From a bacterium (GTDB lineage: Bacteria > Zixibacteria > MSB-5A5 > GN15 > FEB-12), in the NCBI GenBank assembly GCA_043811375.1, contig JBDRNJ010000068.1, positions 18,936-82,935 on the forward strand: DNA of 64,000 nucleotides. The letters are read 5' to 3'. Shown piece after piece: positions 1,483 to 63,615 of this stretch. Position numbers and translations under genes: made by a program. A model generated the notes under the pieces. It was not told where the DNA came from. It was given only the letters and a program-made list of their open reading frames with translations, and ran no database searches. How positions within the stretch are numbered: position 1 is the first letter of the stretch; each line of letters starts with the position of its first letter.

Positions 1483-1824
1483 ACCGACCTGCGGCAGTGC
1501 AACTGTTCGGTCACAACGCAGAGTTTGCGTTTCCCCGGCAACGGTAGTAAGGAACATAAAAGGGAGTCTCCGGCCATCCAGTGGCCGGAGACTGTGGGTG
1601 ATAGGTTGGGAACGTTAGTCTCTGCTGAGAAGCTGTTTATCAAACTCTCTATGTTTATTATACGCAGCAGCCGTATAAAGTTTCAGGAGCCCGGTTGTTT
1701 TCCCTTTGTTTTTTTGATATCGATCTCAATTGTTGCCAACAAAGCTCTTTCTCCCTATAAATAGACCCTGATATCTGTCCCGGCCGTTTGGCCTGACATA
1801 ATGACCTTGACTGGAGATATCCGG

Positions 1825-5621: not shown

Positions 5622-6719
5622 TTACCTTTTGGAGAAGCGGAGGGTGGCGAAAGTGAAAATGACAACGGCATAGACCGTCTGGGCGGCGATGTCGCGCCAG
5701 AGATCGGCAAAGCCTGAGCCTTTCATCATAATGCCGCGAGCAATGCTCAGGAAGAAGCGCATCGGGTTGATGCAGGTAATATACTGCAACCAGTCGGGCA
5801 TGTTGGCGATGGGAGTAAAAAAACCTGAGGTGAGCATGGCGAAGATCGAAAAGAACCAGGCAAAGAACATCGCCTGTTGCTGGGACGTGGTTACGGTGGA
5901 GATAAACAGACCCACCCCCAGAGCCGCCAGCAGGTAGACGGCGGCCAGACCGGTCAGCAAAAACGGTGAACCGACAAACGGCACCGAGAACCAGAGCACG
6001 CCGACCGTCAAAACGACCATCATCTCGAACAGACCGAGAACGGCAAAGGGGGCGATCTTACCCAGCAGCAACGTCAGTTTGGAGATCGGTGTCACCAGCA
6101 GTTGCTCCAGGGTGCCGGCTTCACGCTCGCGAATAAGGGCCATAGAGGTCAGCATCACCGAAAGCATCAGCAGCAGGCTGGCGACAATACCGGGCACCAT
6201 GAAGTACACCGACTCGGCTTCGGGATTGTACAGCACCTGGCGTCTGATATCAATCGGCGGTCGCAAGCCGGTTTTATCCTGCGAAAACTTGCGGGCCATT
6301 TGTGCTGCGTAACCCAGCCCGATCGTGGCGGAATTGGCATTGGAGCCGTCGGCTATTAAACCGACGGTGACTTGCTTTCGCTGCCGGATGCTTTCGGAGA
6401 AGTCCGGCGGGATAAGCAGAGCCATCTCGGCCCGGCCGGTAGTGAAACGACTGTCCAGGTCGTTCACGTCTGTTGCCGGCTCGTCAGCGATGAAGTAGTC
6501 ACCCGCCTGCATGGCGCCGACAAACTCGCGGGACATCCGACCGCGGTCAAAATCGTAGACGTCAAGAGCAATCTGCCGGACTTCGGTATTGGCCACGTAG
6601 CCGAAGATGATCAACTGCATCAGCGGCATGGCGAAGATGAGTTTCAGCATGTTGGCATCGCGAAAGACGTGCCGGAACTCTTTGACGACCAGACCGATAA
6701 AGGGACGCCACATAATCAT
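5622..6719 (-). CDS. ABC-2 type transporter permease (YbhR-like)
   Basis: KEFRHVFRD, YNPE, REREAGTLEQLLVTP, multiple TM helices. Confidence 0.92.
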   Translation of the reverse strand: MIMWRPFIGLVVKEFRHVFRDANMLKLIFAMPLMQLIIFGYVANTEVRQIALDVYDFDRGRMSREFVGAMQAGDYFIADEPATDVNDLDSRFTTGRAEMALLIPPDFSESIRQRKQVTVGLIADGSNANSATIGLGYAAQMARKFSQDKTGLRPPIDIRRQVLYNPEAESVYFMVPGIVASLLLMLSVMLTSMALIREREAGTLEQLLVTPISKLTLLLGKIAPFAVLGLFEMMVVLTVGVLWFSVPFVGSPFLLTGLAAVYLLAALGVGLFISTVTTSQQQAMFFAWFFSIFAMLTSGFFTPIANMPDWLQYITCINPMRFFLSIARGIMMKGSGFADLWRDIAAQTVYAVVIFTFATLRFSKR

Positions 6720-17760: not shown

Positions 17761-18204
17761 CCATGTTTACATTACCGAGACAATTCTTGCCATACATGTC
17801 CCCCTGTTTTGTTCCGGTTGCGGGAAACTACCTCCGCCGTGCCGTGGTTTGAAATTGAGCTATTTGCATATCAGATTCGTGTATTTCCTTGCTCTACTTT
17901 GTTGCGTCAGGTCACACCCGCCTGGGCGGGCAACATCTGACAGAACGTCATGCACTAAACACAGGCCCGTCATTGCGAATCCGCCACAAGCAGTGTGGCA
18001 ATCGTGAGTAACTTCAAGAACTTCACATTACTTCCTGCGTATCAACACTGCTGCCTTGTGACTGCCCTGTATTCTCAAATAAGTACACAGCCAGTATAGC
18101 CCCTGCTGTCCACGATGTCAAGCGAAAAATCTTGATTTTAGTGCGTTTTCCCGCCCCCCACTCCCCTCTTGACAACTACGCACGCATGCTGCATCTTACC
18201 GTCA

Positions 18205-18370
18205 CAACATTGCGGTGCCGTCCGTGTGGACGGGTAATAGGGAAGACGGTGCGAATCCGTCGCAGCCCCGCTACTGTGAAGGCTACTCCACGGGCCTGAT
18301 GCCACCTGTCATCGACGGGGAAGGCGCTCGCCGGAGGTGTGATGCCTCAGCCAGGAAACCTGCCGCGATC
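18205..18370 (+). ncRNA. Cobalamin (B12) riboswitch
   Basis: GGTG...TAATAGGGAAGACGGTGCGAATCCGTCGCAGCCCCGCTACTGTGA...GCCAC...GGGAAGGC...AGCCAGGAAACCTGCC (B12 box), upstream of a TonB-dependent receptor. Confidence 0.93.
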
Positions 18371-18448
18371 CAATCTCACCACGTTGCTGTCAGCGCGGGC
18401 TGACTGACGGCGGTTGTTCCGCGCCGACGGCGACCAATGGAGGCCGCT

Positions 18449-52247: not shown

Positions 52248-53057
52248 CTACGGTGCCCGGTAGTACTGCATCGCTTCCGGCAGGAGTTGCCGGATATCGG
52301 CAATGCGCTTTTCGTCGGAAGGGTGGGTGCTTAGAAACTCCGGTGGCGCACCTCCCTGTTTTAGATTCGCCATGCGCTGCCAGAAACCGACCGCCTCTCG
52401 CGGATCATAACCGGCCATAGCCATAAAGATCAATCCCAATCGGTCAGCCTCTGATTCATGCAGGCGGCTGAACGGCAGCATCACACCGATCTGCGCTCCC
52501 ACTCCGTAGGCAGTCAAAAACAGGTTGCGCGTTTCCTCCGGTTTCTCCTCCAGAGCCACCGACAGCGCCACACCGCCCATCTGGGCCAGCAGCCCCTGGC
52601 TCATCCGTTCGTTGCCGTGGTTGGCGACGGCATGAGCGATTTCATGCCCCATCACTACCGCCAGGCCGGTTTCGTCTTTCGTCACCGAAAGTATACCGGT
52701 GTACACCACCACCTTGCCACCGGGCATACACCAGGCATTGATCGCCGAATCCTCCACCAGGTTGAAATCCCAGGCATACCCGCTCAGCGCGTCGGATCTG
52801 CCCTGATCGGCGAAATAGCGCTGGACGGCCTCTTTTATCCGGTTGCCGGCCCGTTTGACCATCTGCACCTGTTGGGTGTTGTCACTGAGTTTGTGTTCGG
52901 AGATGAATTGCGAGTATTGCTGAAAGCTCATCGAGTTGAGGTTCGATTGGGGAACAAGTATCAGTTGTCTCCGGCCGGTTATGGGTACTGTGGCGCAGGC
53001 CAGCAGCAGAGCCAGGGTAAGCAGGCATGATATCTGAGCAACGCGGGTGATTTTCAT
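52248..53057 (-). CDS. M48 family metallopeptidase lipoprotein (LoiP/YfgC-like)
   Basis: Lipobox LLLAC; NAWCMPGGK; HEIAH; ESEAD; EFLSTHPS. Confidence 0.93.
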   Translation of the reverse strand: MKITRVAQISCLLTLALLLACATVPITGRRQLILVPQSNLNSMSFQQYSQFISEHKLSDNTQQVQMVKRAGNRIKEAVQRYFADQGRSDALSGYAWDFNLVEDSAINAWCMPGGKVVVYTGILSVTKDETGLAVVMGHEIAHAVANHGNERMSQGLLAQMGGVALSVALEEKPEETRNLFLTAYGVGAQIGVMLPFSRLHESEADRLGLIFMAMAGYDPREAVGFWQRMANLKQGGAPPEFLSTHPSDEKRIADIRQLLPEAMQYYRAP

Positions 53058-53339
53058 GGTCGGACTCCCTTGTCTATCTGTTAGAGAGTGATCTTGAACG
53101 ACAGTCTCAGGTATTAGTATGCCCGGCAGAGGGGTCATTCCAAGAAAAAAAAGATGTCTCAATCCAGATCAACCAGGCTCTAACTGCAGGATGGAGCGAG
53201 TCCGGCGCCCGGTTGCGCAACCGGTGTCGGTTTTTTTCCCAAAATCCAGAAAATTGGCCTGTGCAAATGTTAAACAACGACTGTATTCCGGATTCGGGTG
53301 TATCTGCTAACGTTCTTTGAGACAATCACATAGAACATA

Positions 53340-53487
53340 GTGTCCGGCACCGGTGATCCCGGCCGATGGGGGCACGGGCTTTGCTTGTGAAGCGGAGGAC
53401 ACAGACCCGGGCGATCCGGGTCCGGTGCCTCTACCACACCAGTGGTGTTAGACCAGACCCCTGACTGACCATCAGGGGTTTTTTTTG
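53340..53487 (+). ncRNA. Unassigned structured ncRNA candidate with a possible pseudoknot
   Basis: GTGTCC (53340-45) pairs with GGACAC (53397-402), and GGCACCGG (53346-53) pairs with CCGGTGCC (53422-29), in crossing order. Internal hairpins are present, followed by an intrinsic terminator. Confidence 0.55.
53456..53487 (+). terminator. Rho-independent terminator
   Basis: ACCCCTGA-CTGACCA-TCAGGGGT followed by a T-run. Confidence 0.8.
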
Positions 53488-53580
53488 ATCGATTGCTGCT
53501 GATGACCGGTCAGGTCGGTAATTATCTCAGTACCATAAAAGTTGACGGCCGAGAGCTTCTGACGTAGATTCTTCCTCGGC

Positions 53581-55572
53581 ATGAAAAAGAAACTGAGAAT
53601 TATTGCCGCGCTGCTGCTGGTGGCGCTGGCGGCCACCGCCGCCTACTATCTGTACCGTGCCTTCAAGCCACGAAACCAGACTGAGAAACTGGCCGGGATA
53701 ATCCACCTTGAAGACCGGCGGCTGATTTCCAATCAACTCAAGCAGTATCTGCAGGATGGCGATCCTGAAATCCGCGCCCGGGCGGCGCTGGCGGTCGGGC
53801 GTATCGGAGGGCGGGGCAGCGGGGAATTACTGTGGGGACTGATTGCCGACAGCTCCATCGATTTGGGCGTTACGGCCGCTTTTGCTGTCGGTCTTACCGG
53901 CGAGAAAGAATTGGCCGGGAGGTTACTGGATGTCGCTTTTGATCTGCCGGCCGCCGTTGGCGCCGAGGCGGTGGAAGCAGCCGGGCGACTGGCCGACAGT
54001 AGCATGACCGAGGTTGCCGAAGACCTGCTCAGGTATCTCACTCACCCGTCACCGGATGTCCGGGAGGCTGCCTGCCTGGCACTTTTTCGGGCCGGGGCAC
54101 GTTCCAGGGTGCAAGATATTATCGATTTTGTCAATAGTGAGCCGGACCAACTGGTGCGCCATGCCGCCCTGTATGCTCTGGCCAGACTGGGAGCAAACGA
54201 GGCCGAACCGGTCTTTGTCGTGTTCCTGGCCGACCCGGATCCGTTTATACGATCGCTGGCTGTTCGCGGTCTGGGACGAATCGAGACAGCCCAGGCCGGG
54301 CACTATTTGGCGATTGCCCTGAATGACGCCGATGCCGGTGTTGTCGCTCAGGCTATCGGCGAACTGACCGGAAGACAGGACCGGGAAGCACGGGCACAGT
54401 TGGTGGCGAGGCTCTCCAGGGAATCAGATGAGAAACTGGTGATTGCCTTGCTTGATGGCCTGCGTCGACAGAAAAACGACCAGGGTGTCGAGACGGCCCG
54501 GACGATCCTGTCGACCGAACCGCCGCTCAATATCGTTGCAGCCGGCATCAAGTATCTGGCTGCAATCCAGGGAGACCGGTCGGTCAAGCTGATCGATTCG
54601 CTGGTGGCCGACGGTGAGTCTGTGGTGATAGCTGCCTGCGCCGATGCCTTTGGAACTATCGGTGGCAAAAACGTGGTGCCACGTCTGGCGGTGCTGTTCA
54701 ACGATGAAGATCCGGTAGTCCGCCGGCACGCTCTGGAAGCATTACTGCTGGTCGATTCCGCCAATACCGACTTTTATTTACGTAAGGCGCTGGCCGATCC
54801 CGATTTCACTCTGGTGGTTGCCGCTCTGGATCGAATTGCGGAGATGAAGCTCGACAGCTATCTGCCGGTTATGAGCACCCTGATGAGTCGCGGGGGGGAT
54901 GTCGATGTCGATATTCGCCGGACTCTGCTTCAGACGTCCCGATCGTTTGCCGATACCGACGAACCGGACACGACCGCGCTGGGGATATTGTATGCGGGAT
55001 TGCTCGATCCGGAATATGTTGTCCGTCGGGAAGCGTCCGCTATCCTGCGCGAGCAACTGGGGCAGAATCGGTTTGCCTCTGTGGCTCCGCCCGACACCAG
55101 GATCAGTGAAGCCAGGATTGCGGCTGCTCTGGAAGGCTATCGGATCAATCCGGCGGCCACGATCGTCACCAGCCGGGGAGAAATCGAGGTGGAACTGTTT
55201 TTCGATACAGCGCCACTGACGGTGCTGAATTTTATCGATTTGACAACAGAGGGTTTCTACAACGGTTTGTCATTCCATCGAGTGATTCCGAATTTCGTAG
55301 TGCAGGGTGGCGATCCCCGCGGTGATGGCTGGGGCGGGTCGCCATACTACATCAGATGCGAGTACTCCGACGAACCGTTTCGGCGTGGCACTGTCGGGAT
55401 GGCCACCTCCGGCAAAGATACGGGCGGCTCCCAGTTTTTTATAACTCTGTCGCCGCAGCCACATCTGGAAGGCCGTTACACGGTTTTCGGGCAGGTTCTG
55501 TCCGGGATGGATGTAGTCGACCGGATTGTGGTGGGTGATCTCATCGAAGCTATACTGATACACGAGAAATGA
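53581..55572 (+). CDS. HEAT-repeat protein with C-terminal cyclophilin PPIase
   Basis: N-terminal TM/signal; repeated DPxVRxxAAxAL units; FHRVIPNFVVQGGDP, GMATSGKDTGGSQFFI, RYTVFG. Confidence 0.92.
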   Translation: MKKKLRIIAALLLVALAATAAYYLYRAFKPRNQTEKLAGIIHLEDRRLISNQLKQYLQDGDPEIRARAALAVGRIGGRGSGELLWGLIADSSIDLGVTAAFAVGLTGEKELAGRLLDVAFDLPAAVGAEAVEAAGRLADSSMTEVAEDLLRYLTHPSPDVREAACLALFRAGARSRVQDIIDFVNSEPDQLVRHAALYALARLGANEAEPVFVVFLADPDPFIRSLAVRGLGRIETAQAGHYLAIALNDADAGVVAQAIGELTGRQDREARAQLVARLSRESDEKLVIALLDGLRRQKNDQGVETARTILSTEPPLNIVAAGIKYLAAIQGDRSVKLIDSLVADGESVVIAACADAFGTIGGKNVVPRLAVLFNDEDPVVRRHALEALLLVDSANTDFYLRKALADPDFTLVVAALDRIAEMKLDSYLPVMSTLMSRGGDVDVDIRRTLLQTSRSFADTDEPDTTALGILYAGLLDPEYVVRREASAILREQLGQNRFASVAPPDTRISEARIAAALEGYRINPAATIVTSRGEIEVELFFDTAPLTVLNFIDLTTEGFYNGLSFHRVIPNFVVQGGDPRGDGWGGSPYYIRCEYSDEPFRRGTVGMATSGKDTGGSQFFITLSPQPHLEGRYTVFGQVLSGMDVVDRIVVGDLIEAILIHEK

Positions 55573-57302: not shown

Positions 57303-60300
57303 ATGGTCAGAAAGTATATCCTCCTGGTTGGTATGACGCTGGCACTCCTCAGTTCGGGGGGAGTCGCCGATATCGATCGCGGTGAACCTGTTCGTCTGGA
57401 GCCGGTTGATGACCCGTTGATGTTGCCGTATCGGTTCACGATCAATCTCAAGAAAATCGGTCTGGGGGAGGACAAACAATCGATTCTGGAACAATTCGTA
57501 CCGGCCGATATATTCGGACACGGCACTACCGGTCTCTACGGCATCGGCCATAACTGGCGTCCGGCGGACAGTCTGACCGGAATCATCTTCTATGCCGATA
57601 TCGAGCAGAAAAAGACCATCTCTCACGTCAATGTCAAAACGAATCGGATCACGTCTCATCGACACGGTGATTATGATGGTGACGGCGTCATCGAAGTGGC
57701 CGTCACCTATACGCGGCAGGACACTCTCTGGCTGGAACTGATCGATCCCGTGCAGAAGAGTCTGTGCCGAATGGTTCTTATCGTCGGCCGTGACCTTGAC
57801 GGCAATGGTTTCTGGGATGGCGCCGGTGTTATTGCTACCGCTTATGACTTCAACGGTGACGGTTACCCGGAGTTTCTTATTAACTGTGACACGGGCTACG
57901 ATCTCTATCCTCGAAAACTGATCTGCGTTGACTGGTTTAACGACGAGATTCGGTGGGAATTCGATGTCGCCGGTATCGTCAATTCGGGATTTGTCTTCGT
58001 GCAGGGACTGGTAGACGGAGAAAAGCCGTCCATCGTTTTTGCCACCGGTTCCAAAGGCAATGCGGCAGTAACGGCGGACATGGATGACCGCCATGCCTAC
58101 CTGATTGTCCTTGATGACGAGGGTCGCCTGCGGTGGAAGAAAGAGATGGGTGGTGTTTTCAGCAGTTGCTGCCCGGTGATGATTGACCGCAACGGCGACG
58201 GCATCAGCGAAATCCTGGCTACCTGTCGCTACGAAACTCCCGGTGCCAAGGCCGGCGACGAGACGAAATATGGCGGCATGTTACAGGTGATTGACCGGCA
58301 CGGCGCACTGGTTGACTCAGTCGTGTTTGGAGCCGACCGGGTAGTCAGTTGGCTGCAGCAGTTTGATTGGGATACCGACGGTGAAATGGAACTGTTCATT
58401 TCACTCACTGATGCCAGTCTGCTGGTCTACGATAAGATGTTGCGGCTGGTCCGGCAGGTAGAGCTGTACTCGGTGGGTGTAGTCTGGGACTGTCGGGATT
58501 TCCTCGGCCAGGGCCGCAAACAGCTTCTGATGGTGACCCGCGACAATAAGCTCTGGCTGCTGGACACCGAGTTTGAGCCACTGGCTCAATTTTCATCGGG
58601 GGAAGTCTTTGATCGCGGCAAGTCGGCTGTTTTTTCGCATGGCGACACCCGTGCCGGTTACGGGATTGTCCTGGCCGGTGATGGAGGACACGTCAATTAT
58701 TTTCTTGCCCTGGTGGACAGTCCCTGGAGCACGGTGTTTTTCCGACACCCGGGGCTGGCGTTCCTGGCGGCGCTGGTACCGATGGGTCTGGTGGTGATAC
58801 TGGTCTGCATTAGCTGGTACCGGACACGAGCGAAAAACCGGGTCATTTCCGAGCAGCGTGACCGGTTGGATAGCGCTCTGGAGAGACTCCGGGCCGCCCA
58901 GGAGCAATTGGTGGCGGTTGAGCAGTACCGCCGTACCGAACAACAACTTCGCGCCAGTCAGCAGCGGTACAGCGAACTGGTGAACTTGCTGCCGCAGGGC
59001 GTCTATGAGGTAGATCTGGACGGTAAATTAACTTTTGCCAACCGGCAGGCATTCGCAGTTACCGGCTACACCCAGGATGACGTCGATCAGGGCTTGAATA
59101 CCGAAATTATGTTCCCGGTACATGAGCAGGATCGTGCCAGGCAGAATATGGCCAAAGTCCTGCGTGGGGAGCAATTTGATGATCACGAATACACCTTCCG
59201 GCGCAAGGATGGCAGCACTTTCCCGGTCCTGATTTTTTCCAGCCCCATCATGCGGGGCGACCAACCGGTTGGGTTACGTGGTATCCTCCTGGATATCACT
59301 GAGCGCAAACGTGCGATGGAAGCGCTGAAGGAGTCGGAGACGCGCTACCACGAGCTATTCGAGTCCATTATTGAGGGGATAGGTGTAGTCGACGAAAACG
59401 AAATCATCCAATTCTGTAATCCCGCCTATGCACACATCCTGGGGGTAGAGTCGGCAGAGCACTTGATCGGTAAGAACATATTGGACTTTGTGCCCGAGGA
59501 TCAGAAAAGCATCATCCTTGCCCAGACTGAAAAGCGAAAGAAGAACCAGGCTTCACAGTACGAGCTGGATATCATAACGGCCCAACAGGAGCGTAAGACT
59601 ATTCTTGTGTCGGCCTCCCCGCGATTCAACGACAGCAAACAATACATCGGTGCTTTCGGAGCCGTCATTGACATCACTGAGCGCCAGAGAGTTGCTGATC
59701 GTGAGAAAGCCCGGCTTCAGCTTTTCAATGACCTGCGTTCAGCCTTGAGTGTAGATGCCTGCCTGGAGTGTGGGTGTCGGGCCATCTATGAGGCCGGTCT
59801 GTTCAAACGGGCAGTGATCACATTGCACAATGAACATCGCCAGATTGTCAATCTGGGGCAGGTAGGTCTGGATCCGGAGGTGATAACGGCCGCCCGCCAG
59901 GCGCCCGCTCCCGACGATGAACTTACCCGCAATATGACTCAGGACAAGTTTCGCATCGGTCATGCCTATTTTGTTCCCGAGGAAGCAGCCCTGTCATTGG
60001 AAGACACTCCCCGCTACGTGGCGCAGGAAGCCGCCGCCGCCGAGGGCGACACAGCCTGGAAAACCGGCGATGAACTGTTTGTACCTCTTCGCGGTGAAGA
60101 TGATCGGTACGAGGGCTGGCTGTCGGTGGACACACCGTTTTACGGCCGGCGACCAACATCGGAAGTGGTACGTTTTCTGGAACAGGTAGTTGACATCGTG
60201 CGCCAGAAAGTGCGCGAAATCGTCAGCATGGAACAATTACGACAGAGTCTGGCCGCCCTGCGTAAGAGCGAGGAGCGCGCACGAACGCTTCTGGACGGCA

Positions 60301-62081
60301 TTACCGAGACAATGATCCTAATAGACAACGATGGCACAATCCTCACGATGAATCAGTCAGCCGCCAATAGATTCGGCAGGAACATCGATCAGATGGTCGG
60401 CTTGAGGGTGCAGGATTTAGCTTCCCAATTGGTATCGCCGGAAGTGGCTAAAGACAGACTGTCACGAATTGATGAAGCCATTGGTCAGAATAAACCCGTG
60501 CGATTCGAAGACGAACGTGATGGTCGCCTCTATGACACCAACTACTGTCCTGCTGTTGATGCGGATGGCGAGGTTGTCCAGCTTGCTATTTTTGCCGTGG
60601 ATGTCACTGAGCGCAAGCGAGCGGAGGAAGCCCTGCGTGAAAGCGAACGCATCTTGCTTGAGGCTCAGCGAATTGCCTCGACCGGAAGCTGGCAGGTGGA
60701 TGTCCGACAAGGTGTAGAAATTCTGTCGCCGACTATGACGGAGATATACGGTATTAATAAGAGCACAATCAGCCTCGAAGAAGGTATGCAGCTCGTTCAC
60801 CCTGATGATAGACCGGGGGCAAGAGAGGCGTATCGGCAGGTAGCAGCCGGGAAACCGGTGCCACTGGAATATCGCATTGTCAAACCGGATGGTGAGGTAC
60901 GAACCGTTTTCACACCCGGTGCGCATCTGGTTCGAGATGACAAGGGTGAGGTGGTGAAAGTTGTCGGAGTGACCCTGGATATCACCGAGCGCAAACAAGC
61001 AGAAGAAGCCCTCAAGAACGAACGGGATTTCGTACACTCGCTGATGGACACCGCCAACAGCCTGATCGTCTGTCTGGATGGCCAGGCCCGAATCACGGTG
61101 TTTAATCGGGAATGCGAAAAAGTTACCGGATACGAGCGAGAAGAGGTCTTAGGCAAAAGCTGGCCCGGTATTTTCCTTCCCAGGGACCACCATCACCACA
61201 GTATAGAGGATTTCGCTGCCTGGGTCAGACAGCACCCGGAGGATATGTATGAAGGTCCCCTGATAACCAAATCCGGTCAGGTTCGAACTATTTTATGGTC
61301 CAACTCGGCTCTGTTTTCCGATGACTCCGATGAGGTGACGGCGCTTGCCGTCGGTCAGGACATTACCGACCGCAAGGAAGCCGAGAGGCAACTCGAGTTG
61401 GCCAACCGGGAACGCTATAACCAGGTCCGACAGATAGCCGGAGGTGTCGCCCATGAAATACATAATGCCCTCTACCCGGCCACCAGCTCGGTAGCTAAAC
61501 TCAAGGAGAGGCTGACCCTGGTCGGCAGCGACGACCTTACCCGCCACCAGGCACTGATTACGCTGATTGAGAAATCTGTCACCCGCGCTCTCAGCATGAC
61601 GGAACTGGTTACCCGCTACTCGCGGCTGGAATCTGAAAAGAGGCAGGAGTCGGTTGATCTGACACAGTTACTACAAACGGTTGTCAGTGATAACCGCTCT
61701 CGAATCGAGCAACTCGGCGTTACTGTCAACCTTAACCTCCAATCGGATATTACCTGCCGTGGCTGGCATATACATATCTACAGCTTGTTTAACAACATAA
61801 TGGTCAATGCCTTGGATGCTCTGGAGGAAGTGTCCCGCAGGGAGGTTTCCGTCATGGCTGCCCGTGAAGGCGAGAAAATCAGGGTTGAATTTACAGATTC
61901 GGGACCGGGTATCCCTCCGGAAAACAAAGGCAGAATATTCAGCGCTTTTTTCAGTACCCGACCCAAGGACGGCACCGGACTGGGGCTGGCGATGGCAAAA
62001 AAGATTGCTGAATTGTACAATGGCAGCATTGAAGTCGAATCGGAACTGGACAAAGGCACGAAATTCGTTATATTGCTATAG
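57303..62081 (+). CDS. Sensor histidine kinase: extracytoplasmic FG-GAP-like propeller, TM, multiple PAS, GAF, HisKA, HATPase
   Basis: Signal peptide; DxDGDG motifs; TM LAFLAALVPMGLVVILVCISW; repeated DITERK PAS ends; AHEIHNAL, NIMVNALDA, DSGPGI, GTGLGL. Confidence 0.93.
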   Translation: MVRKYILLVGMTLALLSSGGVADIDRGEPVRLEPVDDPLMLPYRFTINLKKIGLGEDKQSILEQFVPADIFGHGTTGLYGIGHNWRPADSLTGIIFYADIEQKKTISHVNVKTNRITSHRHGDYDGDGVIEVAVTYTRQDTLWLELIDPVQKSLCRMVLIVGRDLDGNGFWDGAGVIATAYDFNGDGYPEFLINCDTGYDLYPRKLICVDWFNDEIRWEFDVAGIVNSGFVFVQGLVDGEKPSIVFATGSKGNAAVTADMDDRHAYLIVLDDEGRLRWKKEMGGVFSSCCPVMIDRNGDGISEILATCRYETPGAKAGDETKYGGMLQVIDRHGALVDSVVFGADRVVSWLQQFDWDTDGEMELFISLTDASLLVYDKMLRLVRQVELYSVGVVWDCRDFLGQGRKQLLMVTRDNKLWLLDTEFEPLAQFSSGEVFDRGKSAVFSHGDTRAGYGIVLAGDGGHVNYFLALVDSPWSTVFFRHPGLAFLAALVPMGLVVILVCISWYRTRAKNRVISEQRDRLDSALERLRAAQEQLVAVEQYRRTEQQLRASQQRYSELVNLLPQGVYEVDLDGKLTFANRQAFAVTGYTQDDVDQGLNTEIMFPVHEQDRARQNMAKVLRGEQFDDHEYTFRRKDGSTFPVLIFSSPIMRGDQPVGLRGILLDITERKRAMEALKESETRYHELFESIIEGIGVVDENEIIQFCNPAYAHILGVESAEHLIGKNILDFVPEDQKSIILAQTEKRKKNQASQYELDIITAQQERKTILVSASPRFNDSKQYIGAFGAVIDITERQRVADREKARLQLFNDLRSALSVDACLECGCRAIYEAGLFKRAVITLHNEHRQIVNLGQVGLDPEVITAARQAPAPDDELTRNMTQDKFRIGHAYFVPEEAALSLEDTPRYVAQEAAAAEGDTAWKTGDELFVPLRGEDDRYEGWLSVDTPFYGRRPTSEVVRFLEQVVDIVRQKVREIVSMEQLRQSLAALRKSEERARTLLDGITETMILIDNDGTILTMNQSAANRFGRNIDQMVGLRVQDLASQLVSPEVAKDRLSRIDEAIGQNKPVRFEDERDGRLYDTNYCPAVDADGEVVQLAIFAVDVTERKRAEEALRESERILLEAQRIASTGSWQVDVRQGVEILSPTMTEIYGINKSTISLEEGMQLVHPDDRPGAREAYRQVAAGKPVPLEYRIVKPDGEVRTVFTPGAHLVRDDKGEVVKVVGVTLDITERKQAEEALKNERDFVHSLMDTANSLIVCLDGQARITVFNRECEKVTGYEREEVLGKSWPGIFLPRDHHHHSIEDFAAWVRQHPEDMYEGPLITKSGQVRTILWSNSALFSDDSDEVTALAVGQDITDRKEAERQLELANRERYNQVRQIAGGVAHEIHNALYPATSSVAKLKERLTLVGSDDLTRHQALITLIEKSVTRALSMTELVTRYSRLESEKRQESVDLTQLLQTVVSDNRSRIEQLGVTVNLNLQSDITCRGWHIHIYSLFNNIMVNALDALEEVSRREVSVMAAREGEKIRVEFTDSGPGIPPENKGRIFSAFFSTRPKDGTGLGLAMAKKIAELYNGSIEVESELDKGTKFVILL

Positions 62082-62259
62082 CCCCAAAGAACAGGCTGTG
62101 CCAAGATTCGCCTTTCGTCACGAGCGAGGGCGAAGCAACTTCACTCCTGTCTGAATCATCAACTTTGGATACGGCAGCCACGGTGGTAGCACGTCCCGGG
62201 GTAGTGACGAGCTGACTTTGACGGCCGGTGCGGTGTGCCGAATCGTAACGCGACTGTGT

Positions 62260-63615
<1,356 letters not shown>

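Follow-up and report, generated by a model that had tools for sequence, protein, structure and literature searches.

Small RNAs (sRNAs) that depend on sigma-54 and have dedicated activators are well known in Proteobacteria. The Qrr RNAs, for example, are about 100 nt long, exist in four or five copies, depend on Hfq, and carry a seed beside variable 5′ hairpins, and their activator, LuxO, has few other targets. RNAs under the joint control of sigma-54 and an enhancer-binding protein form an established class, in which the pairs GlmY-GlrR, Qrr-LuxO, CrcZ-CbrB, and NrsZ-NtrC have been tabulated (PMC7602753). The locus described here appears to follow the same design. It lies in a 64,000-nt stretch of DNA from a bacterium of the phylum Zixibacteria (GenBank assembly GCA_043811375.1, contig JBDRNJ010000068.1, positions 18,936 to 82,935 of the forward strand), referred to below as the window, in which a first-pass annotation had proposed a stand-alone, pseudoknot-capable noncoding RNA at positions 53335 to 53487. 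To our knowledge, this phylum has no cultured representative, and we know of almost nothing about post-transcriptional regulation in Zixibacteria or in other lineages lacking Hfq.

Comparative sequence analysis indicates that the annotation had flagged a genuine gene, so far undescribed, for a small regulatory RNA of one uncultured Zixibacteria family. We consider it likely that this gene is a stand-alone unit driven by sigma-54 together with an NtrC-type activator and that its product acts in trans without Hfq, most probably by base-pairing. The RNA is new as a family and familiar in design; it is not a new kind of RNA. Comparison among relatives shows the promoter, an upstream site, the architecture of the RNA, and covariation in its terminator, as well as its conservation as a single copy throughout the family and its independence from the downstream gene. 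The transcription start, expression, the identity of the activator, and a trans-acting mechanism with its targets are what we infer from these features.

Homologs of the element are found throughout the window's family. When positions 53300 to 53490 were compared by BLAST with 60 relatives, conservation was confined to the 3′ third (approximately 53424 to 53490), where identity was 79 to 93% over many genera. A covariance model built from 14 sequences, with which 285 genomes of the phylum were searched, matched 57 genomes from 27 genera, all of them among the 108 genomes of this family and each with exactly one match; one further weak match, which lacks the promoter, came from another Zixibacteria family. 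The E-values of such home-made models are rough, and the homologous sequences are kin rather than independent samples. A search of the whole window against Rfam 15 at gathering thresholds returned only a cobalamin riboswitch (18196 to 18381), and at E-values of up to 10 the matches were sub-threshold and driven by the terminator (e.g., RF02278, with 25.5 bits against a threshold of 50). The locus did not reach the gathering threshold of the Qrr, GlmY_tke1, GlmZ_SraJ, CrcZ, or NrsZ families. Rfam and ARAGORN together found nothing relevant over the flagged stretch, in agreement with the first-pass annotation, which could not match it to tRNA, signal recognition particle (SRP) RNA, 6S RNA, tmRNA, RNase P RNA, or the common riboswitch consensus motifs. 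A literature search on Zixibacteria small RNAs or sigma-54 yielded nothing specific. Small-peptide coding was considered and rejected, as the homologous RNA sequences have no conserved start codon or open reading frame, and in a search for a repeat or mobile-element origin of the region, the matches in the rest of the genome did not exceed 30 nt.

The established sigma-54 consensus is TGGCAC-N5-TTGCW. In the window, a predicted promoter of this (−24/−12) type, GGCACgggctTTGC, lies on the plus strand at 53371 to 53384; it reads GGCAC-N5-TTGC, with the −24 GG at 53371-53372 and the −12 GC at 53383-53384, the spacing that defines such promoters. GGCA[CT]-N5-T[TC]GC is present 5′ of the RNA in 56 of the 57 loci, and the remaining locus has a GGCAG variant. 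The distance from the −12 C to the downstream motif TTAGACC is 42 to 49 nt in most homologs, 52 nt in one, and 64 nt in the window. The window's genome (G000) encodes rpoN on contig C72 (RpoN box ARRTVTKYR; PF04552, 201.9 bits), along with about 22 paralogous activators of the PF00158 (enhancer-binding protein) type. In the same genome, GGCA[CT]-N5-TTGC[TA] is enriched between genes, with 18 of 38 matches being intergenic in a sequence of which 11% is intergenic.

Farther upstream lies a palindrome whose size and placement suit an activator site of the NtrC family, which in this class of sRNA is expected roughly 80 to 150 bp above the promoter. An initial reading of the upstream sequences revealed CTGTTCA-N5-TGAACAG about 100 bp above the promoter. 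TGT[TG]CA-N5-TGAACA occurs in 42 of the 57 loci, at −103 to −124 relative to the −24 GG and usually followed by N3-4-TTGCA, and several further loci carry degenerate versions. The window has such a degenerate palindrome, TGTGCAAATGTTAAACA (53260 to 53276; 13 of 17 consensus positions), 111 bp upstream of the −24 GG, as its candidate upstream activator site for a sigma-54 enhancer-binding protein. A strict pattern with 17 specified bases gave 26 matches in 108 genomes of the family, 25 of which fell at the sRNA's own locus. Since the full site is almost exclusive to the sRNA gene, this candidate site would serve essentially one promoter, and the activator appears to be dedicated to the sRNA gene, as LuxO is to qrr and GlrR to glmY.

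Two palindromes of this kind were seen away from the sRNA. The 26th strict match (L131, approximately 1500 to 1650, minus strand; genome G002, contig C35) is followed, about 105 bp downstream, by a sigma-54-like element, ACCAC-N5-TTGC, which has a defective −24 and precedes a secreted-protein gene. In the window's genome, one intergenic sigma-54 site (contig C62, approximately 10897, minus strand) is directly preceded by TGTGCA-N5-TGAACA.

The spacing of the promoter predicts an RNA start near 53396, with the 5′ end set 12 nt after the −12 C. This position is supported by the sequences that follow it: 20 of the 57 RNAs have GAC[AC] at +3, counted from the predicted start, and most of the RNAs have a 5′ hairpin that opens at +2 or +3. 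With the U-tract of the terminator as the 3′ end, the predicted sRNA is 91 nt long (53396 to 53486, plus strand). Its predicted homologs measure 68 to 78 nt (median, 72), and the RNA in the window is at least 13 nt longer because of an extra hairpin, GACCCGG-GCGAT-CCGGGTC (53404 to 53422, plus strand), which is missing from all 56 homologs. The 5′ hairpin proper, UACCAC-ACCA-GUGGUG, is at 53432 to 53447 on the same strand, and an alternative register, GGUG-N9-CACC (53424 to 53440), agrees with the closest relatives. Such a hairpin was seen in 56 of the 57 homologs, the lone exception being a scripting artifact, and its sequence and register differ between clades. For the 5′ part, minimum free energy (MFE) z scores average −2.6, and 46 of 56 values are below −1.5; the corresponding mean for length-matched control segments is −0.14. 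Compensatory differences are visible by eye among close relatives (e.g., AGCUG/CAGCU versus UGCUG/CAGCA and GGCAUUAA/UUAGUGCC versus GGCAUUU/AAAUGCC). The argument for the 5′ hairpin is thus one of stability in individual sequences, formal covariation not being established.

The most conserved part of the predicted RNA is a near-invariant, single-stranded element, UGUUAGACCAG (53446 to 53456, plus strand), which is a candidate seed or protein-binding site. Among 48 distinct sequences, GACC never varies and the conservation of UGUUA is 90% or higher, and the element is unpaired or just partly paired in nearly all MFE folds. CCAG stands exactly 11 nt before AGACC in 25 of the 57 RNAs, and the variable part is enriched in ACCAG, with 16 occurrences against an expectation of 1.8. 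A terminator scan placed an intrinsic terminator immediately downstream, at 53455 to 53486 on the plus strand, with a 10-bp stem (53455 to 53481), the loop CUGACCA, and eight T (53479 to 53486); the first-pass annotation had described a strong terminator about 95 bp before the next gene, and we measured 94 nt to the ATG at 53581. In the stem, 93 to 94.5% of cells pair, far above slid and shuffled controls, and double changes are frequent (UA to CG at 27:24 and AU to GC at 37:9). The terminator loop contains ACCA in 49 of the 57 RNAs.

These patterns bear on whether the locus yields a functional RNA at all. It might instead be the remnant of a sigma-54 promoter beside a terminator that serves the neighboring genes, given that the transcript rests on prediction and that in some loci the hairpin could be a bidirectional terminator for a convergent gene. 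Yet a lone terminator leaves unexplained the conservation of the 5′ hairpin structure and of the terminator loop sequence. Moreover, UGUUAGACC, between the promoter and the terminator, is invariant or nearly so, and the promoter is held at a fixed 42 to 49 nt from the motif in nearly all homologs. We therefore find a locus devoid of functional RNA extremely improbable.

The RNA first proposed for this region was a different one, a molecule of about 150 nt (53335 to 53487) folded as a pseudoknot and perhaps acting as a ribozyme or ligand binder. Every sequence element named in that proposal is present in the window. Namely, these are the two helices in crossing order, one of 6 bp (GTGTCC at 53340 and GGACAC at 53397) and one of 8 bp (GGCACCGG at 53346 and CCGGTGCC at 53422), and three hairpins, formed by CCCGGCC (53358) and GGGCACGGG (53370), by GCTT (53383) and GAAGC (53389), and by GACCCGG (53404) and CCGGGTC (53416). 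The 153-nt stretch is also more stably folded than dinucleotide shuffles (z = −2.9 on the plus strand and −3.7 on the minus strand), and a weak TTGAGA-N15-TAGTGT can be picked out by eye upstream of 53335. The helices thus exist, but their crossing is at chance level: 7.4% of dinucleotide shuffles of the flagged sequence also contain a 6-bp helix that crosses a perfect 8-bp one, and none of the 56 homologs has equivalent helices at matching positions, those between −56/−50 and the RNA being present only in the window's copy. In addition, the 5′ arms of both crossing helices (53340 to 53353) lie upstream of the sigma-54 promoter, which predicts a start some 60 nt farther downstream than the annotated one, and the first two hairpins, CCCGGCC/GGGCACGGG and GCTT/GAAGC, either overlap it or stand before it. 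Because they are located upstream of or inside a conserved promoter, these arms and the first two hairpins are most likely promoter DNA that is not transcribed. Upstream of 53335, scanning for promoters gave no sigma-70-like site. A pseudoknotted ribozyme or ligand binder of the original extent is, in our judgment, a very remote prospect.

As to function, the first-pass annotation had left a choice between an independent small RNA with its own terminator and a riboswitch-like attenuator of the downstream operon. The RNA occupies an intergenic gap of 523 bp (estimated earlier at about 520 bp) between a divergent M48-peptidase gene (start at 53057, minus strand) and the ATG at 53581 of a gene encoding HEAT repeats and a cyclophilin (peptidyl-prolyl isomerase, PPIase) domain (53581 to 55572, plus strand; Pfam HEAT_2 and Pro_isomerase). 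If the promoter and the terminated RNA formed a 5′ leader, regulated read-through of the terminator would control the HEAT-cyclophilin gene. In this regard, the gene is found downstream on the same strand in 43 of the 57 loci, about 95 to 230 bp past the terminator in most. However, 38 of 58 loci have a conserved promoter, TTGAC[GC]-N17-TAGATT, after the terminator and ahead of the gene, and in the loci read the ATG follows the −10 by 11 to 14 nt; in the window, the promoter scan placed it outside the RNA, as TTGACG-N17-TAGATT at 53542 to 53570 (plus strand). The gene 3′ of the terminator is convergent in five loci belonging to several genera (L054, L063, L072, L078, and L085) and unrelated in others, linkage to the HEAT gene being lost in some genera. 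Conversely, other Zixibacteria carry ilvC-HEAT or RRM-HEAT arrangements without the RNA. The terminator itself is strong, with a 10-bp GC-rich stem followed by eight U, and no conserved competitor of its 5′ arm was seen; the sequence of the RNA's 5′ part is variable and hence offers no conserved aptamer or sensor.

Since the HEAT gene has its own promoter and convergent or unrelated genes follow elsewhere, we read the RNA as stand-alone and not as an attenuator. Comparison across the loci points to INDEPENDENCE from the neighbor, with the HEAT-cyclophilin gene lying outside the RNA's transcription unit. Attenuation is accordingly very unlikely in our view, and of the two functions first suggested, the independent small RNA is the one that fits, being single copy in 57 genomes with its own promoter and a covarying terminator. 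The upstream genes are not conserved either: they include ilvC, a lipoprotein gene, and kinase genes, and the M48 peptidase gene occupies this position only in the window.

Three further observations concern this neighborhood. In the window (53542 to 53583) and at homologous loci, the ATG follows the −10 so closely as to imply a HEAT mRNA that is leaderless or almost leaderless and has no Shine-Dalgarno sequence. In a locus from another Zixibacteria family (L040, approximately 2080 to 2360), a gene for an RRM-type RNA-binding protein, as judged by eye from its translation, is directly 5′ of the HEAT-cyclophilin gene, in the position that the sRNA occupies in the window's family. Finally, a second terminator-like hairpin, CCGGTTGCGCAACCGG, followed by a T-run, is located upstream of the activator site (53209 to 53240, plus strand). 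No plus-strand gene ends there, and the hairpin might close a short transcript starting near 53100 to 53160.

Under the reading that we favor, sigma-54 holoenzyme bound at 53371 to 53384 would drive transcription of the RNA from 53396 to 53486. An NtrC-type enhancer-binding protein would be needed, most likely bound at the palindrome about 130 bp upstream of the start, and the consensus TGTTCA-N5-TGAACA-N3-4-TTGCA would be its putative target. The product would comprise a short 5′ GACA, a hairpin kept in structure, the single-stranded UGUUAGACCAG, and a Rho-independent terminator with an ACCA-repeating loop; the invariant element and the ACCA loops would form its functional surface. A search for Hfq in the window's genome found none, and action in trans would therefore be Hfq independent. 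Base-pairing with mRNA is ranked first because it is the commonest mode for RNAs of such design, and capture of an RNA-binding protein is less likely. The input side of this mechanism, sigma-54 with a dedicated activator, is well supported; the output side we infer.

The nearest candidate for the cognate activator in the window is a REC-AAA+ sigma-54 activator gene (62218 to 63615), 8.7 kb downstream of the RNA, which follows a gene for a 1,592-aa histidine kinase with an FG-GAP-like N terminus and multiple PAS domains (the pair spanning 57303 to 63615). On present evidence this activator was rejected as the cognate one, as its linkage to the RNA is limited to the window and the closest genus. 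None of the other 56 loci has an activator within 1.5 kb of the sRNA.

One genus, g35, differs in its upstream region, where repeated (A/T)TGCAGC motifs stand in place of the palindrome. Here the sRNA lies directly 3′ of a signaling cluster (L104, 3162 to 8864; genome G034, contig C29) that encodes an ABC-type substrate-binding protein, a HAMP histidine kinase, a single REC protein, and a REC-GAF-histidine kinase hybrid. Downstream of the sRNA, this genus lacks the HEAT gene, and three g35 loci have a convergent gene next. Such a cluster next to the sRNA is compatible with two-component control.

Several results weigh against a sigma-54-driven sRNA that acts by base-pairing under a dedicated activator. 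The transcript and both of its ends are predictions. The upstream site of the window is degenerate, and the strict pattern has no match in the window's genome. Several genomes that bear the sRNA lack a close ortholog of the activator at 62218 to 63615, and an activator lies within 10 kb of the sRNA in only 1 of 20 other genomes. A single covariance model that imposes a common register on the 5′ hairpin pairs just 48% of cells. Lastly, a target search was made in the window's genome only, over the −60 to +30 regions of 2,787 crude, ORF-based gene calls; within this scope, k-mer complements of the conserved element were not enriched at translation start regions, and RNAduplex energies were no better than those of a reversed-sequence control.

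The outcome of the target search would also fit a protein-decoy role for the same sigma-54-dependent RNA, in which two to four GACC/ACCA motifs titrate an RNA-binding protein. Precedents exist in CrcZ, which acts on Hfq/Crc, and in CsrB/RsmZ, which act on CsrA/RsmA. The repeats are displayed in the 5′ hairpin loop, the linker, and the terminator loop; GACC occurs at least twice in 54 of the 57 RNAs, and ACCA occurs at least three times in 29. A sibling locus in the three closest genera contains two tandem ACCAG-N-UGUUAGACCA modules, and the window's genome encodes a CsrA homolog. Yet GACC/ACCA differs from the GGA motif of CsrA, no candidate binding protein emerged, two to four sites are few for a sponge, and little can be concluded from a crude target search that fails. 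We regard a decoy as unlikely on these grounds. A sponge of the CsrB/RsmZ type in particular, with multiple GGA motifs in hairpin loops, was rejected for lack of such motifs: GGA is missing from 40 of the 57 RNAs, with a mean of 0.33 per RNA.

The sibling locus lies outside the window, on contig C92 of the same genome (approximately 5948 to 6123; L031, 1400 to 1575, minus strand), and is RNA-like. A conserved ACCUCCUU, which resembles an anti-Shine-Dalgarno sequence, precedes its two modules, and a terminator-like hairpin comes after them. The locus lacks a sigma-54 promoter and is confined to the genome of the window and the two genera nearest to it (G008 and G010). A more elaborate scheme, improbable and more speculative than the simple decoy, would make the sRNA the sole output of a dedicated two-component/sigma-54 pathway, given one upstream site per genome, and an Hfq-free decoy for an RNA-binding protein, working through ACCAG/GACCA modules, with the two-module sibling RNA cooperating. 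If true, this scheme would mean that an uncultured phylum has a titration system resembling Csr/Crc but built on a new recognition motif.

With the base-pairing sRNA as the preferred reading, the significance of the locus is that it presents a cleanly delimited, family-wide sRNA with an explicit input, sigma-54 and a near-unique activator site, and a candidate surface, UGUUAGACCAG and the ACCA loops. It would thus give a testable entry point to RNA regulation in Zixibacteria, leaving general concepts unchanged.

Among described systems, Qrr1 to Qrr5 with LuxO in Vibrio offer a close parallel, the link between the two being documented (PMC7602753). Both are short RNAs with their own sigma-54 promoter, an upstream palindrome, a Rho-independent terminator, and a conserved single-stranded seed beside variable 5′ hairpins, and in both the activator would have very few other targets. 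In contrast to Qrr, the Zixibacteria RNA has one copy per genome, a nonadjacent activator, and no Hfq, and it shows no sequence or Rfam similarity. GlmY/GlmZ with GlrK-GlrR (QseE-QseF) of the Enterobacteriaceae are alike in that a sigma-54 sRNA promoter is the main or only target of a two-component activator (PMC7602753). However, glmY adjoins glrK-glrR and acts by mimicry toward the protein RapZ together with a homologous partner RNA, whereas the RNA described here is nonadjacent and without an Rfam match, and its sibling locus lacks a sigma-54 promoter.

CrcZ of Pseudomonas, under CbrA/CbrB and RpoN, is likewise an RNA dependent on sigma-54 and an enhancer-binding protein; it repeats a short unpaired motif and, through protein sequestration, provides the model for the decoy alternative (PMC7602753). 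It is about 400 nt long, and Hfq/Crc bind to its A-rich CA motifs, of which there are five or six, whereas the Zixibacteria RNA, of about 72 nt, contains two to four GACC/ACCA motifs and comes from a genome lacking Hfq. NrsZ of Pseudomonas aeruginosa, under NtrB/NtrC and RpoN, shares the combination of a sigma-54 promoter and an NtrC-type upstream site driving a noncoding RNA (PMC7602753). Yet NrsZ is a processed, multi-repeat RNA encoded beside ntrC and linked to nitrogen limitation, a link that is not visible at the Zixibacteria locus. Overall, the analogy with Qrr, GlmY, NrsZ, and CrcZ appears to be one of design rather than of sequence or Rfam structure.

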